Source: Coraliomargarita sp. (GTDB lineage Bacteria > Verrucomicrobiota > Verrucomicrobiia > Opitutales > Coraliomargaritaceae). From it: 64,000 nucleotides of DNA. This document shows positions 1,061-13,424 of this stretch, piece after piece (within the stretch, counting starts at the first letter, position 1; each line of letters begins with the position of its first letter). The position numbers and the translations under genes are program-made. The stretch lies in contig OZ244160.1 of assembly GCA_965216325.1 (NCBI GenBank), forward strand, positions 1,312,001 to 1,376,000, written 5' to 3'. The notes below the pieces were generated by a model. That model saw only the letters and a list, made by a program, of their open reading frames with translations, did no database searches and had not been told where the DNA came from.

Positions 1061-3529
1061 ATGAAATATACAGCTGCCAGCACTGGCCTGCTCGCGATTG
1101 CAAGTATCGCCTCATCGATCGCACACGCCGAAGACCCACTCCTTAGCTATAAGGCCGAAATCATCGCCAAAGCACAACCGGATGAGTGCTTTTACGACCT
1201 CTATGACCCCGAAGTCCAAGGCAGCGGCGAGAACATTTACGAAAAGAGCGGAATCGATTGTGAGGACTGCATCAACGGCGGCGGACAACCTAAGATCAAT
1301 CAGGCCTATGTCTGGGGCATGACCCGCAAGGACAACTATCTGTGGTATGGCACGGGGCCCAATGTCAACCGACTCGTGAGCGGCGTATATTATGGCGCTG
1401 AAGATGGAAGCGTTGTAAACAGCCGTGGAATCAATTTCAGTGTGGCCGAATACGCTGACAGCAAGTTCGTGCGAGATGGTGTTTTCGATGTCGAGCAACA
1501 AGTCGGCATCAACGGCGACCTCGGCTACAGTGCCAATCCCGGCGTTGGTGACTGGCGTCCACCAGACGCCTACCGTTTCAACCTCGATACCGAGACGCAG
1601 GAAAACCTGTATGACAACATGGACAAGAGCGAGAAAGAGTGGTTATGGAAAACGCTCGGCCTTCGCTCAGCCGGATACAGCGCCCCGAATACGACGCATA
1701 CCAGCGGATTGGTTTTTCTCGCAGGCCCCAGCATCACTGCCACCGATGACAATGGAGACGGCGTCATCATGTTCGCCTTCGATGCCAACACCGCTGACTG
1801 CGTCGGCGCGCAAAGCTTCCCGACTTACACCAACATCCGCAAATGGAAGCATTATAACGGTCAACTTTACACCGCGATCGCAACCGATAATGGAACTGGC
1901 CAAGTGCTCCGCTGGGTCAATGATCCGAACGACGCGGCATATCCCTTTGAGTTCGAAATCATTGGCAATCTAAATGCAGGCGGTGCTGAACTCGAGGTGC
2001 ACGATGACGGAACAGGTCCACGCCTTTTTGTGAACACTTGGCCAGGAATTGAAGGCAACTTAGACATCGGTGGCGATGTGACTACGATTCAAAACCTAAT
2101 CAACGCACCTGCTGGGCTATGGCGTAGTCCGGTTACCATCGATTCCTTGAATACAAGCCATGCCAACAGCTGGCAACTGGTCTGGAGTGTCGCTGACTAC
2201 GAACCCGACCTAGTTATTGGCTTACACTACGGTGGTGGCGCAATGGCTTCATTCGATGGACACCTCTACTGGGGAACCATGCACGTGCCCGGCACCGCAA
2301 GTTTAGCACATACGATTGGCTATGGCCCAACGCCTGCACCATTGCCACGCCCCGATCCGTATCCCGAGGATCCGAATGATCCTGAGCGCCTAGCTTACGA
2401 AGCTGACGTTCAACGCTGGCGTGCCGAACGTTACGAAGACTTTGTAAACTCCTACCGCGCGATTTCCATCTGGCGCGGCACGAATTTTACCAACAGCGGC
2501 GGTGATATAGACCTACTTTACGGAAACGAAAGCATGCCAGTGCGAATGGAGCGCAGTGTGTTCATGGAAAACAATGACCCACGCGGCACATTCAACAATC
2601 TCTACGGCACTTTCTTTGCCGACAATGTTGGGAATTTACGCAATGTAGCGGACAACACCGATTTCTTTGTCTGGATCTTAAAGGGCACAGTCGTCGACGG
2701 TGGCGACTGGGGCAACGAAGGCGACCCTAACACCGAAGACTCGACGCAACTCGTCCAGAACGTGAGCGGCTTCATTCCGCTCCATGGATCCGAAGGCATC
2801 AGCGAAGCCACTAATAACTATACGTGGACTATGCAGGTTTTCAACGGTAAGCTCTATATCGGAACCATGGATTGGGGCGACCTCAGCAGCCCGGATGACT
2901 TCCCTGGATCTACAGACGGCGCCGACCTTTACTGCATTGCAGCGGCAAACGAGCCTGCTGTAGCAATCACCAAGCACGGTATGGCCAATTGGTCCAGCTA
3001 TGGTGTCCGCACAATTGCAGCAGACGACGACCGCGGCGAACTCTACCTCGGCATGGCGAACGTGCACAATTTGCTCAGCACCAAAGTTGGTGACCCGGAA
3101 GATGGCGGCTGGGAAATTCAGCGAGTCACGCAACGCTTCACGGATGAGGATTTCGATGAACTCGATGACGAATGGGAAGCACTCCACTTCGGCAACACTG
3201 CGTCTGCAACCAGCACCAGTAGCAATACCGACGGCGACCCACTCACCGATGTTGAAGAATGGCTGGCTGGCACCGACCCGAACGACCCCAAGAGCTTCTT
3301 CTTTAAAGTTCTCGAAGAGGGCACGTCCGAAGGGATGCAGCAGATCGAATGGCCATCCATCCCGAATCGCTACTACACCGTCTGCGAGACTGACGACCTA
3401 AACGGCACCTGGAGTCCGGTCGCGACTTTCGAGGGCGATCCTGACAGCGATCCACTGACCTACGAATTTGATCCATCCCTGACGGATGCTAAATTCTTCA
3501 AAGTGATCATCACACCCGATGCGCCTTAG
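1061..3529 (+). CDS. Large secreted acidic protein, probable beta-propeller, with C-terminal Asp-rich Ca-binding-like repeat and terminal beta domain
   Basis: Signal peptide (..SIAHA), repeated LY(W/I)GT blade-like motifs, C-terminal NTDGDPLTDVEEWLAGTDPNDP and ..FFKV tail resembling verrucomicrobial surface proteins. Confidence 0.7.
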   Translation: MKYTAASTGLLAIASIASSIAHAEDPLLSYKAEIIAKAQPDECFYDLYDPEVQGSGENIYEKSGIDCEDCINGGGQPKINQAYVWGMTRKDNYLWYGTGPNVNRLVSGVYYGAEDGSVVNSRGINFSVAEYADSKFVRDGVFDVEQQVGINGDLGYSANPGVGDWRPPDAYRFNLDTETQENLYDNMDKSEKEWLWKTLGLRSAGYSAPNTTHTSGLVFLAGPSITATDDNGDGVIMFAFDANTADCVGAQSFPTYTNIRKWKHYNGQLYTAIATDNGTGQVLRWVNDPNDAAYPFEFEIIGNLNAGGAELEVHDDGTGPRLFVNTWPGIEGNLDIGGDVTTIQNLINAPAGLWRSPVTIDSLNTSHANSWQLVWSVADYEPDLVIGLHYGGGAMASFDGHLYWGTMHVPGTASLAHTIGYGPTPAPLPRPDPYPEDPNDPERLAYEADVQRWRAERYEDFVNSYRAISIWRGTNFTNSGGDIDLLYGNESMPVRMERSVFMENNDPRGTFNNLYGTFFADNVGNLRNVADNTDFFVWILKGTVVDGGDWGNEGDPNTEDSTQLVQNVSGFIPLHGSEGISEATNNYTWTMQVFNGKLYIGTMDWGDLSSPDDFPGSTDGADLYCIAAANEPAVAITKHGMANWSSYGVRTIAADDDRGELYLGMANVHNLLSTKVGDPEDGGWEIQRVTQRFTDEDFDELDDEWEALHFGNTASATSTSSNTDGDPLTDVEEWLAGTDPNDPKSFFFKVLEEGTSEGMQQIEWPSIPNRYYTVCETDDLNGTWSPVATFEGDPDSDPLTYEFDPSLTDAKFFKVIITPDAP

Positions 3530-3545
3530 TGCTTCGCGCTAATCA

Positions 3546-4232
3546 ATGGCACTGATCGAACTTAGAGATGTCTCCCGGTCCTATCTACTCGGCGAAACCC
3601 GAGTGGAGGCCCTCAAGTCGATCAACCTGAACATTGACTCTGGCGAATTTACCGCTCTCTGGGGGCCATCCGGATCCGGAAAGTCATCGCTCTGCCACTT
3701 AATCGGCGCGATTGACCGACCGGACTCGGGAACCGTTTCCATCAACGGCAAAGACCTCAAGACTTTATCTGATGATGCTCTTTCATCCCACCGTAATCGC
3801 TCAGTGGGATTCATTTTTCAGAGCTTCAATTTGGTCAACGTGCTATCCGCACTAGAGAATGTGTTGCTTCCCCTGCAGCTACGTGGCTCTTTTGGGAAAC
3901 GTGACAGCGAGCAGGCCCGCGAACTACTCACCGAGCTAGGACTGGGAAAACATCTCACACACCGCCCAGATAAGCTTTCCGGTGGCCAGCGCCAACGCGT
4001 CGCCATTGCACGAGCACTAATCACCGAAGCACCCATCATCGTTGCCGACGAGCCCACGGCCAATCTTGACTCAGTCAACGCGGAGCAAATCCTTGAAAGC
4101 ATGCGTGGGTTCAATCGCGACCGGGGCACCACCTTCGTCTTTGCGACTCACGACCCGCGACTTCTGGAACAAGCCAACCGTAGAATACAACTCTGCGACG
4201 GCACCATCGAAGAGGACCTCAGCCGAGCATGA
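3546..4232 (+). CDS. ABC transporter ATP-binding protein (LolD/MacB-like)
   Basis: Walker A GPSGSGKS, signature LSGGQRQRVAIARAL, DEPT, H-loop. Confidence 0.95.
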   Translation: MALIELRDVSRSYLLGETRVEALKSINLNIDSGEFTALWGPSGSGKSSLCHLIGAIDRPDSGTVSINGKDLKTLSDDALSSHRNRSVGFIFQSFNLVNVLSALENVLLPLQLRGSFGKRDSEQARELLTELGLGKHLTHRPDKLSGGQRQRVAIARALITEAPIIVADEPTANLDSVNAEQILESMRGFNRDRGTTFVFATHDPRLLEQANRRIQLCDGTIEEDLSRA

Positions 4233-5479
4233 AGATGTGGTTCACTCTAGGCCTGCGAAGCCTGTTAAAGAATCGGCGCCGCTCTTGCTTTACTATCGGA
4301 GCGGTCGCCTTCGGCTTTGCTGCGGTGAACGTGATCGGCGGCTTTATGAACTACGTCTTCCGTGGACTGGAGGAATCGTATGTCTACGCTTTTGGCAATG
4401 CACACCTAACCATCTTCAAGCAAGGCTTCCAAACCGAAGGAAAACTGGAGCCCTCCAATTACCTAATCGACGAAACCAGTCTGCATGCTATCCTCGCAGA
4501 GTGTCAGCAGATTGACGAAGTCTTACTCGCGACTCCTCAAGTTCAAGTCACTGGCCTACTGAGTAATGGCGATGTCTCAACGATCATGGTGGCTCAGGGC
4601 ATCGTGCCCGACGACGCAAAGTTCATCCGGGAGCAGGCTTCGGGTTTTATGAGGAACCTCGAAATGTTTACTGGCGAGGAACTCAGGAACGCCGAAGAAG
4701 CATATATCAGCGTCGCATACGGTTTGGCAGAGAAACTGCACCTGAACCAGGACTCCGATGTCATCACGGTCGCAACCACTGTTGAAGGCTATATGAATGC
4801 GATGGACGCCACCGTCGTGCAGCTTCAAGACGCACCGCTTGAAATCCTAGATGAGATGCTCGTCACCGTGCCCTTCAGCTTTGCACAAGAACTCTATGGA
4901 ACTCAAGGTGCGGATCGCATCTTAATTCTACTGAAGAAAGGACAAGGTCTGGAGGCCATGCGCTCGCGCCTAGAACGTCAGCTACAAGCATCTGGATATG
5001 AGGTCGAAGTCGTCAGCTGGAAGGATTTGCGCGTCTCCTACCGTCGCATCAAAAGCATGTTCAACGTGCTCTTCGCCTTCGTGTTCTCAGTGGTCGCTTT
5101 AATTGTCGCTCTCAGTATTATCAACACGATCAGTATGGCAGTTATGGAGCGCACTCGCGAGATCGGGACCCTTCGCGCACTCGGCCTCAAGCAGCAGGGT
5201 GTCATACTGTTGTTCAGTATTGAAAGTATGCTGCTTGGAACGATTGGAACCCTGATTGGTCTAGGTATACATACAGGCACGCTACTACTCGTTCAAGCGA
5301 TCCACCCCACGTGGATACCACCGAATATTCCAAAACGTGTGCCATGGGAAATCGCCTGGGCACCCAACTTTCTCATTGTCACCGCAATCTGCATGGTGCT
5401 CCTATCTATCTTCGCAGCCGTTATTCCATCACGCAAAGCGAGCCAGATGGAAATTATCGACGCTCTCGGCCACGTATAG
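4229..5479 (+). CDS. ABC transporter permease (FtsX/LolE/MacB-like)
   Basis: N-terminal TM, large periplasmic domain, ERTREIGTLRALG motif, three C-terminal TMs; ATGA overlap with the ATPase. Confidence 0.92.
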   Translation: MKMWFTLGLRSLLKNRRRSCFTIGAVAFGFAAVNVIGGFMNYVFRGLEESYVYAFGNAHLTIFKQGFQTEGKLEPSNYLIDETSLHAILAECQQIDEVLLATPQVQVTGLLSNGDVSTIMVAQGIVPDDAKFIREQASGFMRNLEMFTGEELRNAEEAYISVAYGLAEKLHLNQDSDVITVATTVEGYMNAMDATVVQLQDAPLEILDEMLVTVPFSFAQELYGTQGADRILILLKKGQGLEAMRSRLERQLQASGYEVEVVSWKDLRVSYRRIKSMFNVLFAFVFSVVALIVALSIINTISMAVMERTREIGTLRALGLKQQGVILLFSIESMLLGTIGTLIGLGIHTGTLLLVQAIHPTWIPPNIPKRVPWEIAWAPNFLIVTAICMVLLSIFAAVIPSRKASQMEIIDALGHV

Positions 5480-5497
5480 CCAGCACACAGAATCACT

Positions 5498-6244
5498 ATG
5501 AGACACCGCTTGAAAATCTGCTTCCTACTTTGCGCTGCACTCTTCAGTCAGGTCGCGAGCGCGAGCACACTCAGCCACACCGAGATTCTGGCCAAATGCG
5601 ATGCTGCCCGCGGAAATATGGAAGGCGTCGAGTGGGAAGTGAGCGTCAAAGAAGAATCCGTGGGCAAAAGTGACGAGCGCCGCATTCATGTTCAGGCAAA
5701 AGGCTTCGATATGGTCGCTGAGACCTTGGCACCACCGCGCCAGAAGCAGCACAAGTTGCTGCTCGTGAAAAATAATATGTGGTTCTATAAGCCCGGACTC
5801 AGCAAACCGGTCCCCGTTTCCCTGCGCCAAAAACTAACTGGCCAAGCTGCCAACGGAGATATTGCGTCGACCAACTACGCGAAGGACTACGAGATATTGA
5901 GCACCTCAGCGGCTGAGCACAACGGAGAAGCCTGCACTCTCTATGAGCTGAAAGCGACTAGTAAATCGGTCAGCTATGCACGCATCCACTACTGGGTCTC
6001 CAAGGAACGGCATGTTGGCCTACGCGCAGACTACTACAATGCATCCGGTAGCAAGCGCCTGAAGACTGCAACCATGCGTTACGAGAATGAAGTCGAGCTT
6101 GAGGGCCAACACCGCCCATTCATTTCCGAAATGGAGATTGCCGACACGGCAACCTCCGACACCGTCACACGCTTAAGCTTTTCCAAGCCAAAGCTCGGCA
6201 AGATCTCACCGCGGGCATTCAACCTGCAAGCGCTGACGCGTTAA
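5498..6244 (+). CDS. Outer-membrane lipoprotein-sorting protein (LolA-like family)
   Basis: Signal peptide, MWFYKPG..PVPVSLRQKLTGQAANGDIASTNY pattern, position in a LolCDE-like operon. Confidence 0.8.
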   Translation: MRHRLKICFLLCAALFSQVASASTLSHTEILAKCDAARGNMEGVEWEVSVKEESVGKSDERRIHVQAKGFDMVAETLAPPRQKQHKLLLVKNNMWFYKPGLSKPVPVSLRQKLTGQAANGDIASTNYAKDYEILSTSAAEHNGEACTLYELKATSKSVSYARIHYWVSKERHVGLRADYYNASGSKRLKTATMRYENEVELEGQHRPFISEMEIADTATSDTVTRLSFSKPKLGKISPRAFNLQALTR

Positions 6245-6270
6245 CAAACAACCAGACTGCAACCGACTAC

Positions 6271-7482
6271 ATGAAGCGACTTAGCCTACTGGCACTAATC
6301 GCCGCACATACAAGCGCATATAGCAACAATGCCCTACTAGACTGGTGGGATGAGCATGGCGACTTCACCATTCGCAACTTAAGCTCAGCATTCGCTCAGC
6401 AGCCAGCCGAAATCCCGCTCTATGAAGGCTTGGGATTTTTACTGGGCACCGAGAGTGACAACATCCTGAACCTTCCCGGCTACAGTCTCGTCAACGAATT
6501 TCGCCCCGAAGCCAGCATCAGCTACGAGCACGCCTTCTTGGAAGTGAAACCGCGCTTCGTCGCGCGCCGTGACTATTTTCGCGAAGGTGAATTCGATGGC
6601 AGCGAAGCCAGCGACGACGAATTCTATATCTATGAATGGGTCGCACAATTCTTCCTCACACCGGAGCTATCGATTTCTTATGGTCGTGAAGACCTGCAAT
6701 GGGGGCCCTCGTTCTTACTCTCACCCTCGAACCCCTTCGATAGTGACAACGGCCGTTCAGAACCGAAAGCCGAAGTGGATAGCGCTGATTACGCGAAAGT
6801 CATCTGGACACCAAACTTTAATTGGACGGTCTCAGCTATCGTCAATACCGATGACGGCCGTAAAGACTATCGTATCGATGACCGGCTCCGCCAAGACTTC
6901 CGCGACATCTATGCGCTCAAAGTCGACTACCTCTTTGAACGCGGCAACGCAGCGGTCATTGCCTCGACGACTGACAGCGCGGAAGACATAGATGAGCGAC
7001 TCGGTTATTACATCAGCTACAACCTTACGGATGCATGGATCGGCTACAGTGAAGGCAGCCTATCAAGCGAAGACGAAGAGCTCCTTCTTGGAGCCAGCTA
7101 CACCTTCCAGAGCGGCCTGAGCGTTGCTGCGGAATATTTCTACAATTCCAGTGGAATCGATGATGATATACCCGAAACTGTTTTTGGACTGATCGATCTG
7201 GGCGATTACCTCACCTCCTTGCCAAATCGCGAAACGTTCTTCCGTGAGCATTACGCGCTGCTGCAGATCTACCAAAACGACGTGTATCGAAGCTTAGATC
7301 TGCTCCTGCGTTATACGCACAATATTGACGACAAATCGAACAGCTTGCTCGGCCATGCCGAATACGACCTAAACGATTACGTTCAATTATTCACCTCTGC
7401 GACTCTGAATAGCAACGGAGGAGGTGAACTCGATAGCCTGAGAGAATACTGGGTGCAGATCGGCGTTGAATTCAGCTACTAG
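6271..7482 (+). CDS. Probable outer-membrane beta-barrel protein
   Basis: Signal peptide, alternating aromatic beta strands, GREDLQWG motif, C-terminal VQIGVEFSY beta signal. Confidence 0.7.
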   Translation: MKRLSLLALIAAHTSAYSNNALLDWWDEHGDFTIRNLSSAFAQQPAEIPLYEGLGFLLGTESDNILNLPGYSLVNEFRPEASISYEHAFLEVKPRFVARRDYFREGEFDGSEASDDEFYIYEWVAQFFLTPELSISYGREDLQWGPSFLLSPSNPFDSDNGRSEPKAEVDSADYAKVIWTPNFNWTVSAIVNTDDGRKDYRIDDRLRQDFRDIYALKVDYLFERGNAAVIASTTDSAEDIDERLGYYISYNLTDAWIGYSEGSLSSEDEELLLGASYTFQSGLSVAAEYFYNSSGIDDDIPETVFGLIDLGDYLTSLPNRETFFREHYALLQIYQNDVYRSLDLLLRYTHNIDDKSNSLLGHAEYDLNDYVQLFTSATLNSNGGGELDSLREYWVQIGVEFSY

Positions 7483-7560
7483 GGCACGAATCACCAGCTG
7501 TCAAATTGTAGATGACATGGGCGTTTATCAGGAGCACGGAAGTGCTATGATGATAAACTT

Positions 7561-8649
7561 ATGCAAAACCCCACATCATCTACACGGACAACTAAGAACG
7601 CACTGGGCACAGTAATCAAGCTTGGCATTGACGTGCATGCGAGCACCTACGTGGTGGTCATGAAGATCGATAGCAGCGCCCCTTCACGCGCGAAGCGCAT
7701 GAAGCCTGATATCTTCCTTCGATGGATTAAGCAGCTGAGCACTCAGTGCGAGCAGTTGCAAAGTTGCTACGAGGCCGGTCCTTTTGGTTACAGCCTGCAC
7801 CGCAAGCTCAAGGCGATGGGCGTGAACAACCACGTAATCCGCCCGATCAACTGGGACACTCATGGTAAGAAGGTAAAGACCGACGCGCGTGATGCGTTGC
7901 AAATGGTCTTGAGTCTGGACGGCTATCTGCGGGGCAATGACCGCAGCTTCAGTGTCGTGCGTGTGCCCAGCGAGCAAGAAGAGCGTCACCGCAGCCTAAC
8001 CCGGCAGCGTGAAAGCTTCGTCAAAGAACGTGGCCGTGCGGCCAAGCGTGGTAAGAGTCTGGGACTGTATTACGATCAACCCTTACCCAGCGGCTGGTGG
8101 AAGCCGCGCAAATGGATGCAGCTACTCGAACAGCTCGACGATTTTTTGATCAGCCTGCTGGAGCCACTGCGGTTAAACTGCCTGCACTTTAGCGAGCTAA
8201 TCAGCAACATCGAAGAACGTATCGAAGCGCTCGAGCCGGAACGGGTGCTGCCTAAAGGCATGGGGGTGGTCCTCTATGAACAGATCGAACGTGAGGTCTG
8301 CAACTGGAAGCGATTCAACAACCGCAAGGCGGTCAGTTCCTTTACCGGACTGTGCCCAAGCGAAGACACTAGTGCAAATCGGCGTTTCCAGGGCTCGATC
8401 AACAAACACGGCAGTCCCCGCCTGCGGCATATGCTACAAGAGTGCGCCTGGTTATTGATCCGGTGGAATCCCGGCTACAGTGGGGTGCGTAAATGGCAGG
8501 CCAAGCTCAGCGACGAGACCACCAGTAAGGCGACCCGCAAGAAAATTGCCGTGGCCATCGCCCGGCAGTTCGCCGTGGACTGGTGGCGCATACGCACTGG
8601 CCAATGCAGTCTCGAAGACTTCGGACTGATAAGCAGACAAAACCCATAA
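7561..8649 (+). CDS. IS110-family DEDD recombinase/transposase
   Basis: GIDVH, CYEAG, KTDARDA RuvC-like DEDD residues; C-terminal GLCPSEDTSA serine loop and INKHGSPRLR. Confidence 0.95.
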   Translation: MQNPTSSTRTTKNALGTVIKLGIDVHASTYVVVMKIDSSAPSRAKRMKPDIFLRWIKQLSTQCEQLQSCYEAGPFGYSLHRKLKAMGVNNHVIRPINWDTHGKKVKTDARDALQMVLSLDGYLRGNDRSFSVVRVPSEQEERHRSLTRQRESFVKERGRAAKRGKSLGLYYDQPLPSGWWKPRKWMQLLEQLDDFLISLLEPLRLNCLHFSELISNIEERIEALEPERVLPKGMGVVLYEQIEREVCNWKRFNNRKAVSSFTGLCPSEDTSANRRFQGSINKHGSPRLRHMLQECAWLLIRWNPGYSGVRKWQAKLSDETTSKATRKKIAVAIARQFAVDWWRIRTGQCSLEDFGLISRQNP

Positions 8650-8713
8650 GTCCGAACCAACGCTAAAGGCCTTCACCCTCTGATTTTAACGTTCTTTTGC
8701 AGTTTTCCTTTGT

Positions 8714-8860
8714 GCGGAGTGAGTCTGACCAAGCCCCTGTTGCCAACACAACGATTTTGTAGAATAGGCCACTTCGCCACCAAGCTTTTGAATGACCCAA
8801 TGGATAGGTCATAGTGTGCTCTTCTGAGAAACACTCAGAAACACGGATAGCAGGTTATCC
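8714..8860 (+). ncRNA. Predicted bridge/seek RNA core with target-binding and donor-binding loops; true transcript ends unknown, may span about 8650-8900
   Basis: Stem 8714-8726/8766-8777 encloses AAGCCCCT and TTGTAG (target matches); stem 8802-8807/8855-8860 encloses GTCAT and ATAGCAG (donor matches). Confidence 0.8.
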
Positions 8861-8985
8861 CGGATCATCGAAACTCCGAGGCCATGCGCGGTGGACGCTC
8901 AAAGACGATTGCAATCAAAACAAACCACTTATCTTATGTAAAAACACTCACACGCTTCTACACTCTTGACAGAAACGAACATAGC

Positions 8986-9227
8986 AGGGGCTTTTCAAGC
9001 GAAGCCCGCAAGACGCTAATTGGCCACGAATACCACTTTGGTAAAGGTTCGACCTGGATTCGGGCTTTAGGGACGACAGTCTCTAGCGGTCCGAGAAAAT
9101 AACTACGTTCGGACGCTTGTGGGTATGTGCCCCTACCAAAACCGCCAAACCTTCTTCAAAACAGAAAACGGACTAAACTCCACCATTCAGCCTGAGCTTC
9201 TGATCGAAGGCAAACGAAGCCCCTACG
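8986..9227. repeat. Inverted pair of GTAG-type REP-like palindromes; the left copy is interrupted by the IS110 element
   Basis: (GT)AGGGGCTT-TTCAAGCG-AAGCCCGC at 8986-9009 and, inverted, CGAAGCCCCTACG ending at 9227. Confidence 0.7.
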
Positions 9228-9290
9228 CCTGCAACTCAAACGCTAACTGAGAGGCTTTCAAACAGACAAAGATCTCAATAAAGTTGAGAT

Positions 9291-11204
9291 ATCGAGTAGC
9301 CGGGAGCGGTTGCCTGCTCCAAGCTCTCACACCACCGGACGTACGGTTCACGTATCACGGCGGTTCCGAAGAAGGATTTCGGCTCTCATCAATTCGAGCA
9401 AATCATAGACAGATAGGAGCTTCATTTGCGTGAAGGCTTTGCGTGGGAGGGCTTGGTTCATGTGAGAGGCTCCGCTGTTAAACCACGCCCCGCGTCCGTT
9501 GTAGCTGCTTTTGCGGGCACATTCGGGGCTGAGCCCAAGCTGCACCAGCTTCCTGTAGCGGGTGTGGGGACGTTTCCACTGTCGCCAGAGGATGCACCGC
9601 AAGCGATGTCGCAACCATTCGTCCAGTTCCCCGGCGAAGGTTTTCGTCTGACTCAGGCGGAAGTAGTTCGTCCAGCCGCGTAGCACTGGATTGAGCGTCT
9701 CAGCGATGAAGCGGCGCAGGTTGCGCCCGCGCCCTTTGCGGCAGAGTTTCCGCAGCTTGGACTTCATCTTTTGAGTCGTCTGTTTGGGCACGCGAATGCG
9801 GCTATGCTTGCCCCCAGTGAAGCTGTAGCCGAGGAAGATCCGGCGGCTCGGACGATCCACCGCGCTTTTGAGGTGGTTGACCTTCAGCTTCAGTTTGGTC
9901 TCCAAATAGTTCGTGATCGAAGCGAGCACACGCTCGCCGCTGCGCTGCGTGGCGACGTAAATGTTACAGTCGTCCGCGTAGCGGCAGAAGCTATGGCCGC
10001 GCTTCTCCAGTTCCTTATCCAGATCGTCCAACATGATGTTGGACAGCAGTGGAGAGAGCGGCCCACCCTGAGGCGTGCCTTTCTCCATGGGTTGAACCAG
10101 CCCGCCGATCATCACTCCAGCTTTAAGCCAGGAGCGGATCAGTTTGAGCATGGCTTTGTCTTTCACATGACGGCGCACCCGCGCCATCAGCAGGTCGTGG
10201 TTCACTTCGTCGAAGAAGGCCTTCAAGTCCATGTCCACGACCCAGTTCTTGCCTTCGTGCTGATACTTTTGCGCCTGTTCGACCGCTTGTCCTGCGCTGC
10301 GTCCGGGGCGGAACCCGTAGCTGTGTTCGCTGAACAGGGGGTCGAAGATCGGGCTGAGTATCTGCAAGGCCGCTTGTTGCAGCACACGGTCAACGATCGT
10401 GGGAACGCCCAGCTTGCGGGTGCCCCCGCCCGGCTTTTTGATCTCCAGACGCAGCACTGCCGGGGGACGATACCTCCCGGTCAGCAACTGCGATTCGATC
10501 TGCTCCCAGTGCGCATTTAGATACGCCAGGCTGGCTTCCATGTCGCGCTCGTCGATGCCCGCTCTGCCGCCGTTGCGGCGCACTTTCTTCCACGCGGCTT
10601 TGATATTGCCGCGCTCGGTCACCTGTCGAATCAGGTCGTATTGGTGAGCAACTCGGTTCTCCAAGGCCGATGGCGCGCTTGATGCGCCCGCATGGACTCG
10701 CCCCAGATGCCGTCCGGTTCCTTCCACGCGGGTCTGACGGGTGGTGCCGCCAGCTTCTGCTTCCCTGCTCTCGCTCATGGTCTCAGTCCTTGTTGTCGTT
10801 CTTCGGTTCGATCCTTCGCCCGCGACCTGTGCAGGCTACTATGATCTCGGCTGACTTCTCTAAACACATCCCAGTGCCTCGCGACACTGGTAGCCAGTAG
10901 CATGTTCAGAGACCTCCCCGGGTAATGCGCACTTACCGTCACACTTATGCCTGCCGCATGTACGCCTGCGCTTTCCGGGCAAGTTTCGGACTTTGAAGTT
11001 CTGTGCCTCCTCATCCAACGCAAACGCCTCTTATGCGATTTCTGTTCGTCAGGCCAGTGCTTTGCCATAGGCTTCCTTCCCACGAACACCTCGCGATGCC
11101 GCAGTTGCCCTTCGGCTAACTCTTCCCCTTGCCGGGCGAGTAACAGACTTTCATCAATTTCCATTAATAATCACTGTCGAGTAAGTGCGCCCTGCCGGGC
11201 GCAC
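9291..11204 (-). mobile_element. Group IIC intron, copy 1 (1914 nt)
   Basis: 5' GTGCGCCCGGC, domain V GAACCGCCG..GTACG..CGGTGGTGTG with CGC triad, domain VI ending CTACTCGAT, inserted directly after a terminator hairpin. Confidence 0.95.
9348..10778 (-). CDS. ltrA: Group II intron reverse transcriptase/maturase, no endonuclease domain
   Basis: RKLGVPTIVDR, SYGFRPGRS, GTPQGGPLSP, YADD, X-domain LRGWTNYF. Confidence 0.95.
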   Translation of the reverse strand: MSESREAEAGGTTRQTRVEGTGRHLGRVHAGASSAPSALENRVAHQYDLIRQVTERGNIKAAWKKVRRNGGRAGIDERDMEASLAYLNAHWEQIESQLLTGRYRPPAVLRLEIKKPGGGTRKLGVPTIVDRVLQQAALQILSPIFDPLFSEHSYGFRPGRSAGQAVEQAQKYQHEGKNWVVDMDLKAFFDEVNHDLLMARVRRHVKDKAMLKLIRSWLKAGVMIGGLVQPMEKGTPQGGPLSPLLSNIMLDDLDKELEKRGHSFCRYADDCNIYVATQRSGERVLASITNYLETKLKLKVNHLKSAVDRPSRRIFLGYSFTGGKHSRIRVPKQTTQKMKSKLRKLCRKGRGRNLRRFIAETLNPVLRGWTNYFRLSQTKTFAGELDEWLRHRLRCILWRQWKRPHTRYRKLVQLGLSPECARKSSYNGRGAWFNSGASHMNQALPRKAFTQMKLLSVYDLLELMRAEILLRNRRDT

Positions 11205-11206
11205 AC

Positions 11207-11240
11207 AAAAAGGCCCTCCAGTGAAAACTGGAGGGCCTTT
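11207..11240 (-). terminator. Intrinsic terminator of the porin gene; intron copy 1 target
   Basis: AGGCCCTCCA-loop-TGGAGGGCCT followed by a T tract. Confidence 0.9.
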
Positions 11241-11264
11241 GATCAGAATATAAAAAGAGCTATC

Positions 11265-12503
11265 TTAGAAAGAGAAGATCAGCTCAACAGCACCGATGAG
11301 TTCATCATACTCTGCATCACCACCACCGGTCAGCACACCACCCGCATCAGCACCGAGATCGCCGTCGCCTTCAGCATAGCTTACTTCAAGCACAAGCAGC
11401 AGGTTATCAGTGAATGCGTAGTTGTGGGCCAGTGTGAACTTAAGCATGTCTGCCTCGATGTCAGCGTCAGCTGAGATTGGTGTGCTTACGTCACCTTCAA
11501 TCTCGTAATCAACATAGCTGATACGACCAGTCACAGATGCCTTCTCGCTGTATGCCCAGTTGGCCATGATCAGACCACCAAGGGAATCAGTTTCGATGTC
11601 AGCAAGAACACCAGAAACCCCTGGCGCATCTGTAGTGTCATCCCACTCATTGTTGCCGTAGAAGAATTCTGCAGCAAAGAACCATGCACCCATTTCATAA
11701 GTAACATAGGTGTTGAAGGTGTAGCTGGTTGTGTCACCGGTATCGATTGCGTCACCAGAGAGACCATCACCGTCTTCATAAGCGAGGCCAACGAACCATG
11801 TGAAGTCTTCAGTTACGTTCCAAGCACCTGCAAGTTCAGCGCCCCAACCGCCACCGTCGACGGACTCGGAACCACCAAGACGGCTGTCGTAGTTTTTGTC
11901 ACCGTCAAGTAGCGAGGCACCAAAGAAGAACTCGTCGCTCTCATATGTGTATTTTACACCTTGAGAGTAGTTTGCGCCAATCGGGAAGATTGTGCCAGTC
12001 AACGCTGCGATATCCTCACCGCCAAGGTCATCAGGAAGGAAGCCAAGACCAAGGTCAAGAAGCTCAGAACCTGCAAAAGGAAGCGAATATGCAGTAGAGT
12101 ATTGGTAAAGACCTGTTGGCTCGAAAGCTTCGAAACCAAGCATCGATGCGAAGCGACCAGCTGTGATCGCACTGCCACCGTCGAAGTGGTAAGTCGCGAA
12201 TGCCTCTTCTACTTCAAGGTCATCACCAGCTTCTTCATATTCAAGATCGATTTGAGCAGTTACCTTGTCGAAGTCGAACAACCAGCTGATTTCAACCTGA
12301 TCTACAGCGAAACTGTTGTCGGAGAAGTCTTCATCAAAGACGTTACCAACGCCGTCAACGTCAGCTTCAGCACTGCCGTCGGCGTGAACGTAGGACATAT
12401 CGATAAAGCCCTCGAAGGAAAGGAAGTCATTGATGACGATCTCACCATACGAAAGGCTGCAAGCCGCAAATGCTGCGGATGTAAGCGCAAGTTTCTTATT
12501 CAT
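11265..12503 (-). CDS. Outer-membrane porin/beta-barrel protein
   Basis: Signal peptide, EGFIDMSY, GRFASMLGFEAFEP, very acidic, ends ELIFSF. Confidence 0.85.
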   Translation of the reverse strand: MNKKLALTSAAFAACSLSYGEIVINDFLSFEGFIDMSYVHADGSAEADVDGVGNVFDEDFSDNSFAVDQVEISWLFDFDKVTAQIDLEYEEAGDDLEVEEAFATYHFDGGSAITAGRFASMLGFEAFEPTGLYQYSTAYSLPFAGSELLDLGLGFLPDDLGGEDIAALTGTIFPIGANYSQGVKYTYESDEFFFGASLLDGDKNYDSRLGGSESVDGGGWGAELAGAWNVTEDFTWFVGLAYEDGDGLSGDAIDTGDTTSYTFNTYVTYEMGAWFFAAEFFYGNNEWDDTTDAPGVSGVLADIETDSLGGLIMANWAYSEKASVTGRISYVDYEIEGDVSTPISADADIEADMLKFTLAHNYAFTDNLLLVLEVSYAEGDGDLGADAGGVLTGGGDAEYDELIGAVELIFSF

Positions 12504-12719
12504 TAGTGTAGTGTTCTTTGGTTTGTTTGTCGTGAACCCTCATAAATGAGAAATTCAACGAGCAAAATCTGCCCCAAAAACGTTAGAAAGTGAAGCTTTT
12601 TTTTATGAATCAAACACCTCAAAAAAGAGACACCTAGACACCTCATAAAGCTGTCACGAATAAGGCCGCCCAGCTCAATTAACTAAGCATGAGGCAGGCA
12701 GTGGCTTCCCCTCACCAAC

Positions 12720-13424
12720 TTAGGCATACACAATGCAAGCGCACTGATCGCAGAAGTGAGGCTCCCCTGAATCGAGCGCCTCTCGAGAGACCTCATTCGA
12801 CACGCGCAAATGGCAACGCGCACAAACGTGCGCTTCAATCCTTGCGACATACGGTGCCCGCTTCACCAATTTACGCACACGATCATAGTGCTCGATGTAG
12901 GACTCTTGAATGCCTTCGCGTGACGCAGCCAGCGCTGCCTTGGCGTCATCAATCGAGTCTTTAAGATTCTGCTCTTTCTGAGCCAAGAGCTCAATGTGAC
13001 GACGCTGCTCCTGAATACGGAGCTCAATCTCGGCCTTATCGGCATTGAACTGCTCGGTGACTTCGTCGATTTCGAGCATCAGCTCGATTTCCTGCTCCTC
13101 GAGTGTCGAAATTTCAGTCTCAGTCTGCTCAATCTGCTGAGTCATCGCCCGATACTCGTCGTTTTTCTTAATTTCGAGCTGCTGGGTGCGAAATTTGGCC
13201 ACGGCGGCCTCTTTGGCCTTCACCTCTGTGTCGAGTTCACTGCGCTGCACCTCTTTTTCCTTCAGTGTCTGGCGAGCGGCCTCAACATTGGCCTCTTCCG
13301 CTGCGATCTTGCTTTCGATTAAGGCGCGCTCTTTGGGAATACGCGTGAGCTCTTGCTCGATTTTTTGCAGCGAAGTGTCGCGATCTTGAACGATTAGGAG
13401 CTTTTCGATTTGCGGGTCAGGCAT
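12720..13424 (-). CDS. Coiled-coil plus C4 zinc-ribbon protein (CT398/DUF164-like)
   Basis: Long coiled coil, C-terminal CARCH...CDQC. Confidence 0.9.
   Translation of the reverse strand: MPDPQIEKLLIVQDRDTSLQKIEQELTRIPKERALIESKIAAEEANVEAARQTLKEKEVQRSELDTEVKAKEAAVAKFRTQQLEIKKNDEYRAMTQQIEQTETEISTLEEQEIELMLEIDEVTEQFNADKAEIELRIQEQRRHIELLAQKEQNLKDSIDDAKAALAASREGIQESYIEHYDRVRKLVKRAPYVARIEAHVCARCHLRVSNEVSREALDSGEPHFCDQCACIVYA

Follow-up and report, generated by a model that had tools for sequence, protein, structure and literature searches.

What does the long non-coding 3′ end of an IS110-family insertion sequence encode, and which stretches of DNA do its sequences read? The question is raised by a locus of Coraliomargarita sp. 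(Verrucomicrobiota; contig OZ244160.1, positions 1,312,001–1,376,000 of the forward strand), where a stretch of 64,000 nucleotides, here called the window, was analysed; all coordinates without another label are those of the window. A sequence-only reading had placed a bridge RNA gene in the right end of the element, with one loop that reads the target, a second loop that reads the element's ends, and an AG core, and this placement is upheld by covariation of both the structure and the guides. The interval 7512–8987 is very probably an active-looking insertion sequence (IS) of the IS110 family and IS1111 type, with a bispecific bridge RNA ("long seekRNA") encoded in its 3′ non-coding end. Together with the transposase, this RNA would form the complete, programmable recombinase–RNA pair that had been suggested from the letters of the DNA.

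The element and the host DNA at its ends contain the following features.

7506–7511, plus strand: left target half-site TTGT and core AG, in host DNA; read in the sequence and in the flanks of nine copies
7512–8987, plus strand: insertion sequence, 1476 bp including the right-hand core AG; same ends in every copy
7512–7516, plus strand: left end ATGAC, which would be the "right donor" half-site after the ends are joined in a circle
7517–7534, plus strand: left sub-terminal inverted repeat ATGGGCGTTTATCAGGAG, an imperfect counterpart of 8963–8982 read in reverse complement
7561–8649, plus strand: transposase/recombinase gene, 362 aa; found with Pfam and NCBIfam, a single open reading frame (ORF) filling most of the element
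8963–8982, plus strand: right sub-terminal inverted repeat; contains the −35-like TTGACA (8966–8971)
8983–8987, plus strand: right end AGC and core AG; read in the sequence and in all copies
8988–9007, plus strand: right target half-site GGGCTT, the 5′ arm of a REP-like hairpin GGGCTT..AAGCCC

The genome (3.06 Mb in one contig) holds this element in nine places at 100% identity; all nine copies are 1476 bp long without a difference, and each lies in different flanks. The junctions read AG/ATGAC...CATAGC-AG/GGGCTT in every copy (slashes mark the boundaries of the element), such that the core AG stands just outside the left end (7510–7511) and, at 8986–8987, closes the right end. The right flank is GGGCTT in nine of nine copies and the left flank GTAG in eight, with GAAG in the ninth; the orientation of insertion relative to GGGCTT is identical in all nine, with AG on both sides, and no target duplication beyond AG was found in the nine copies. 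Because GGGCTT forms the 5′ arm of a GGGCTT..AAGCCC hairpin in most copies, the target is a REP-like repeat. The genome contains 131 AGGGGCTT sites, where its base composition predicts 118; the element occupies nine of them, 34 stand empty with GTAG in front (GTAG/GGGCTT), and 30 have the hairpin. The element is a genuine, young and apparently recently active IS1111-type IS in nine copies.

Upstream of the window copy lie host genes (5498–7482): one encodes a LolA-like protein (PF17131, E 1.6e-28) and the other is an ORF of 403 aa without a Pfam match. The IS begins 28 nt past the stop codon of the latter. Downstream, about 300 nt from the IS, a group II intron occupies 9291–11100 on the minus strand, with domain matches to RF02001 (E 3.5e-27) and RF01998 (E 7.4e-11), a weak match to domain V/VI, and an intact reverse transcriptase/maturase ORF at 9348–10778. 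Between IS and intron, 230 nt from the IS, an empty target GTAG/GGGCTT is present at 9217–9226 on the minus strand.

The transposase gene leaves 49 nt of non-coding DNA before its start codon and 338 nt after its stop codon. Its product matches PF02371 (Transposase_20) at E 4.9e-14, with 52.9 bits against a cut-off of 21.3, and PF01548 (DEDD_Tnp_IS110) at 29.2 bits against a cut-off of 29; the full-length match (21–344 of 362) to NF033542, "IS110 family RNA-guided transposase", scores 137.8 bits, 2.2 below the curated cut-off of 140. Relatives were collected by a one-genome-per-species scan with an alignment of the window protein and seven relatives, which returned 77 loci at 39–72% identity to the window protein, mostly in Verrucomicrobiota (Opitutales and others), and a search within the order added more. 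Residues D24, E71, D108, D111 and S271 are invariant in the eight-sequence alignment and may correspond to D11, E60, D102, D105 and S241 of IS621, a match made by position only, so that the DEDD and serine chemistry of IS621 and ISCro4 would be shared, as far as conserved residues indicate. The finger motif reads GLCPSEDTSA in the window protein and GLCPSExSSG in most relatives. A search of the PDB with the single protein returned nothing at E ≤ 0.01; among solved structures, the specific matches of a profile of the clade were the transposases of ISCro4 (E 9.1e-5) and IS621 (E 0.014) alone, in an alignment that takes in the KTDxxDA and GL.P....SG stretches, and sequence searches of the solved structures turned up no chain of the IS1111 type. 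Plasmid-borne IS110-family transposases reach at best 31.8% identity, and their annotations gave no IS name, the best matches being labelled "IS110 family transposase" only. The accessible portions of the supplements to the founding papers contain no Opitutales and no IS names for this clade, and the tree table of Durrant et al. includes unnamed Verrucomicrobia proteins. By sequence comparison, the transposase is remote from characterised members.

Some relatives occur as two close copies, in tandem or inverted (loci L103, with RNA matches at its positions 3449–3587 and 4963–5101, L115, L095 and L096); at one L103 copy, a REP-like unit separates the right end from the next element.

Guides are named here after Durrant et al. 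(2024, PMC11208160), whose account of the nomenclature has left guides pair with the bottom strand and right guides with the top strand, the donor being the joined ends of the element. The candidate RNA then has the following parts.

8714–8777, plus strand: bridge RNA loop 1, target-binding, with closing stem, internal loop and inner hairpin; from the minimum-energy fold and covariation
8731–8738, plus strand: right target guide AAGCCCCT, reverse complement of AG plus GGGCTT (8986–8993); covaries with the right flank
8757–8762, plus strand: left target guide TTGTAG, identical to 7506–7511; follows the left flank
8802–8860, plus strand: bridge RNA loop 2, donor-binding, with outer stem, internal loop, inner stem GTGT..ACAC and hairpin; from RNAalifold and covariation
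8808–8812, plus strand: right donor guide GTCAT, reverse complement of the left end ATGAC (7512–7516); its central 3 nt covary
8845–8853, plus strand: left donor guide GGATAGCAG, in which ATAGCAG (8847–8853) is identical to the right end plus core (8981–8987)

The stems and the four short matches from which the RNA had been proposed can all be read directly in the sequence where they were reported: loop 1 is closed by 8714–8726 with 8766–8777, loop 2 has the outer stem GGATAG (8802–8807) with TTATCC (8855–8860) and the hairpin TTCTGAG (8822–8828) with CTCAGAA (8834–8840), and the two loops together span 147 nt. Folding of the single sequence is not unusual compared with shuffled sequences (z = +0.90 for 8650–8990 and −1.45 for 8712–8862). 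Loop 1 is present in both minimum-energy folds, whereas in loop 2 a pair of local hairpins takes the place of the outer stem. A search of 6000–13000 with Rfam at E ≤ 1 gave no family in 8650–8990, the only matches being the group II intron models elsewhere. Folding of one sequence is weak evidence, and we take the comparative evidence to be decisive.

That evidence begins with RNAalifold, which returned exactly the two-internal-loop structure from the six closest RNAs and showed compensation in 10 of its 31 pairs. The same six RNAs gave a covariance model that matched 82 of 90 sources searched (86 matches at E ≤ 1, of which 78 at E < 0.01), and 78 hits lie 2–350 nt (median 34) past the stop codon of the transposase. 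Across 66 distinct relatives, 88.4% of cells pair, against 35–47% when the partner is slid by 1–3 columns, 27 of the 31 base pairs have changed on both sides, and none of 500 shuffles reached the observed score; the 66-sequence alignment was fitted to the covariance model and hence favours the structure, and the relatives are not independent samples. Helices 1–4, in loop 1, are 89–96% paired, with both sides changed in 15 of 17 pairs; in loop 2 the inner helices are 78–98% paired and the outer stem (helix 5) is the weakest, at 71%. About 80 loci, mostly in Verrucomicrobiota, carry the two-internal-loop RNA, and loop 2 persists in almost every relative, as far out as about 40% protein identity. 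Covariation across homologues and their flanks, named at the outset as a check on the proposal, is accordingly present in the structure, and the guides follow the flanking DNA as described below.

For the comparison of guides with flanks, the ends of the relatives were located by motifs (left, AG + 5 nt + ATGRR; right, TTGAC...CAT + 3 nt + AG), since a generic search for inverted repeats had returned mostly unrelated repeats. Since both patterns presuppose conserved ends and an AG core, the counts lack elements with other ends; identical rows were merged, and the left-end pattern mis-calls one locus (L089). Over 42 unique pairs, the right target guide agrees with the right flank of its own element at 5.17 of the 6 nt beyond the core. 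Taken as one representative per guide class (n = 22), the match is 5.09 of 6 to the guide's own flank against 1.97 to the flanks of other classes, and none of 10,000 permutations attained the observed sum. Examples are GGGCTT in the window element and L041, GGGTCA in many relatives, GAGGGGAG in L010, GATGGGCG in L057 and CGCAGC in L081; L017, L060 and L090 are one base off, and L075 matches at only 3 of 6. The left target guide matches the left flank at positions −1, −2, −3 and −4 in 33, 28, 18 and 13 of 35 unique pairs, respectively, and by class (n = 16) at 2.44 of 4 nt against 1.21, again with 0 of 10,000 permutations. It reads, in effect, the core and 2–3 bases, in keeping with the left flanks of the nine local copies, which have only GTAG in common. 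Had homologues at other targets kept one loop sequence, the guide assignment would have been in difficulty; instead, their loop 1 sequences differ and each follows the flanks of its own element, in 22 classes of right guide. The same genome also holds a second, single-copy element of the family (L010, at G000:C1:2769548-2770597; 46% protein identity), which has its own 3′ RNA (37.3 bits) and a right target guide that matches its own flank GAGGGGAG at 8 of 8 positions; as each of the two elements has its own guide, the genome carries two specificities.

It is over loop 2 that the strongest competing explanation arises. Siddiquee et al. (2024, PMC11187229) report for ISEc11 that a short seekRNA sufficed for transposition and state, where they treat the long form, that its role is not established; loop 1 could accordingly guide alone, as an RNA of about 65–90 nt, with loop 2 as a scaffold or processing remnant and with the protein recognising the ends, independently of RNA pairing, through the sub-terminal repeats and the flanking target halves. 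We consider this decidedly improbable for the present element. In its favour, the minimum-energy fold lacks the outer stem of loop 2, the weakest of the helices, and the left donor guide, which faces the right end, is identical in 77 of the 84 RNAs parsed, so most of its match could reflect shared ancestry. Against it, where this guide does change the right end changes with it: 57 loci have ATAGCAG in both guide and end, five (L062, L071, L072, L075 and L081) have ATATTAG in both, and the two forms are never crossed in these 62 loci; three further rows have one mismatch (ATAGAAG twice, from one locus fetched twice, and ATGGCAG once). This covariation seems real but thin, as it comes down to a single two-base event within one clade.

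The right donor guide, which faces the left end, pairs over 3–5 nt only and is mismatched in several clades, a further point for guidance by loop 1 alone; its central bases nevertheless compensate in two clades. The left end ATGAC is common to most relatives and is accompanied by GTCAT (19 loci), ATCAT (13) or GTCAC (2), and also by ATCAA, ATCAC and GTCAA, such that only the central TCA opposite TGA is constant and outer positions are mismatched in several clades (ATCAA or ATCAC against ATGAC). Other clades have the left ends TTAAC, with the guide GATAA (12 loci), ATAAC, with GATAT (4 loci) or GATAC, and ATACC, with AGTAA (4 loci). The central pairings are therefore TCA/TGA, GTA/TAC and, with one mismatch, ATA/TAA: the middle pair has gone from C:G to U:A in two clades (TTAAC/ATAAC and ATACC), the ATACC clade has also exchanged U:A for G:C, and a guide/left-end pair differs as U:A versus A:T between the ATAAC and TTAAC clades, which share a constant A:A mismatch at the second position of the guide. 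In the clade of the window element this guide is followed by AG and not by the core complement CT, which a distant clade does have (GTCAT-CT). Also counted against a passive loop 2 are its retention in nearly all relatives and the passages in which Durrant et al. (PMC11208160) predict donor loops in IS1111 elements. Judged from these comparisons, three of the four guides appear well supported, and the right donor guide, the weakest, is supported only as a 3–5-nt contact, of which the central 3 nt alone hold across the family. The reading in which loop 2 contacts both ends of the element is the more probable one.

A copy of the left end, ATGAC, also lies in the linker between the loops (8792–8796), 12 nt before the right donor guide, with which it pairs in the single-sequence fold. 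It is kept as ATGAC or GTGAC in the nearest relatives only, and it could mask the right donor guide.

Another explanation accepts the bridge-type RNA and its protein and supposes that the element no longer moves, the nine copies belonging to a domesticated or decaying family. Contigs from four DNA runs of one study contained no circle junction, joint or empty-site contig for 7300–9200, a weak negative that is uninformative on mobility because contigs drop rare forms. Set against this are the nine copies without differences over 1476 bp, the intact reading frame with its conserved catalytic positions, and the match of all four guides to current ends and sites, and we regard immobility as very improbable. 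The view that the 3′ end is an ordinary structured untranslated region (a terminator, stability element or protein-binding site) with four chance matches, which the unremarkable folding energy, the shortness of the matches (5–8 nt) and the absence of an Rfam match at E ≤ 1 might suggest, is almost certainly wrong, as it is contradicted by guides that track flanks in 22 and 16 classes (0 of 10,000 permutations each) and by the covarying structure.

The putative bispecific bridge RNA is best understood beside the systems already described. Bridge RNAs were predicted in the right end of 93% of IS1111 elements, according to the relevant section of Durrant et al. (2024, PMC11208160), and Siddiquee et al. 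(2024, PMC11187229), where they compare the two types, place the non-coding region of IS1111 types downstream and describe seekRNAs of the IS1111 family in which the match to the top strand lies 5′ of the match to the bottom strand, the order being reversed in the IS110 type. The order of right guide before left guide, which had been noted as the reverse of that in IS621, is indeed present (8731–8738 precedes 8757–8762); it is not unusual, being the published rule for the IS1111 type. As both this order and the 3′ location have been published for IS1111-type elements, the pair is a known kind of RNA-guided recombinase.

With the IS1111 group as characterised by Siddiquee et al. in their descriptions of individual elements (ISEc11, ISPa11 and ISKpn4), the window element shares a long non-coding region 3′ of the transposase gene and a guide complementary to the top strand 5′ of one complementary to the bottom strand; its two-loop span of 147 nt falls within the 145–170 nt given there for long seekRNAs, and its REP-like hairpin target has a counterpart in that of ISPa11. 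Also shared are a −35 box in the right end for a putative junction promoter and candidate sub-terminal repeats with short terminal extensions, features that the same source covers. Sub-terminal inverted repeats of the group are 7–17 bp long, whereas that of the window copy is weak: the pairing of 7517–7534 with 8963–8982 in the single element is not above chance (538 of 2000 shuffles). Relatives carry the blocks ATGGG(G)/CCCCAT and GTCAGGAG/CTCTTGAC at the same offsets, 5 nt and 3 nt plus core from the ends. The GL-P----S motif of the transposases is common to both, ending in S-A in the window protein and S-G in relatives; at 362 aa this protein is just outside the 330–350 aa quoted for IS1111 transposases (PMC11187229), and the host lineage, Verrucomicrobiota, is different.

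IS621 and ISCro4 (Durrant et al., 2024; Hiraizumi et al., 2024, PMC11208158) likewise rely on a single RNA in which a target loop precedes a donor loop, each loop reading both strands around a 2-nt core, and likewise target REP sequences. Their RNA lies in the left end and their core is CT, whereas the window element has its RNA in the right end, an AG core and the reverse guide order in each loop; protein similarity is detectable by profile only. All four guides of IS621 include the core, as stated where its guides are defined (PMC11208160), unlike the right donor guide of the window's clade. ISPpu9 of Pseudomonas putida resembles the window IS in its invariant AG recombination, its insertion at REP sequences and its several copies per genome, as set out in passages of the report on that element (PMC12288879). 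The same passages place ISPpu9 in the IS110 group (without end repeats), with its own promoter and a regulated 5′ UTR, in which it differs; moreover, ISPpu9 circles are there described as making no stronger promoter, unlike the junction promoter proposed here.

By analogy with ISEc11 and IS621, the element would excise as a circle, joining ...CATAGC-AG-ATGAC.... Transcription, processing, protein binding, circle and catalysis are in this scheme what we infer from the analysis; every step has a precedent in the literature (PMC11187229, PMC11208160, PMC12288879). In the circle joint, 17 nt would lie between the −35 TTGACA at the right end and the left-end TGACAT (7513–7518), the −10 of the proposed junction promoter, which agrees with TATAAT at 3 of 6 positions. 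In relatives TTGAC stands at the same distance from the end, and positions 2–7 of the left end are T[G/A]ACAT or TACCAT in every clade; a scan of the integrated element gave no sigma-70-like promoter, and a search for RNA runs that include 7480–9020 returned none. A junction promoter has been described for ISEc11 and IS621, and that of IS1111 types has been proposed to give a single transcript out of which the RNA is processed, as noted in parts of two reports (PMC11187229, PMC12288879). Here, too, transcription from such a promoter would run through the transposase gene into the RNA downstream, and the RNA would then be cut out of this joint transcript. The transposase would bind this RNA, loop 1 pairing with the two target strands and loop 2 with those of the circle joint, and strand exchange at the AG core would give landing in one orientation, with no target duplication, at the 5′ foot of the REP-like hairpin.

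The left junction has a further property. Positions 7507–7526 (TGT, AG and the first 15 nt of the element) are 80% complementary to 7565–7584, transposase codons 2–8, which encode a conserved PTSS peptide. A similar pairing of left terminus and ORF start is found in L042, L043, L045, L013 and L051, and other clades pair the terminus with +41 to +57 (33 rows). Transcripts from the junction promoter would be without the 5′ arm of this pairing and read-through transcripts would carry it; the pairing may be a block on translation from outside transcription. In a wider reading, which we put forward as an unlikely one, the clade would comprise deep-branching, mostly verrucomicrobial, IS1111-like bridge recombinases with an almost frozen donor code and a free target code, in which the 3–5-nt, core-skipping left-end guide, the ATGAC mask at 8792–8796 and the pairing of mRNA start with left junction would together act as an RNA switch between excision, expression and insertion.

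For the host, the IS accounts for nine identical repeats at REP-like sites of the genome. For the family, the locus adds a compact pair of recombinase (362 aa) and RNA (about 150 nt) from a phylum without characterised examples; among the matches listed by a literature search, none was found that joins IS110, IS1111 or bridge RNA with Verrucomicrobia or Opitutales. The roughly 80 relatives constitute a natural reprogramming series, in which one scaffold bears 22 classes of right guide and 16 of left guide and from which the guide rules of the IS1111 type can usefully be learned. They also give comparative support to the view that loop 2 of IS1111-type long seekRNAs reads the ends of the element, a point left open where Siddiquee et al. 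discuss the long form (PMC11187229).
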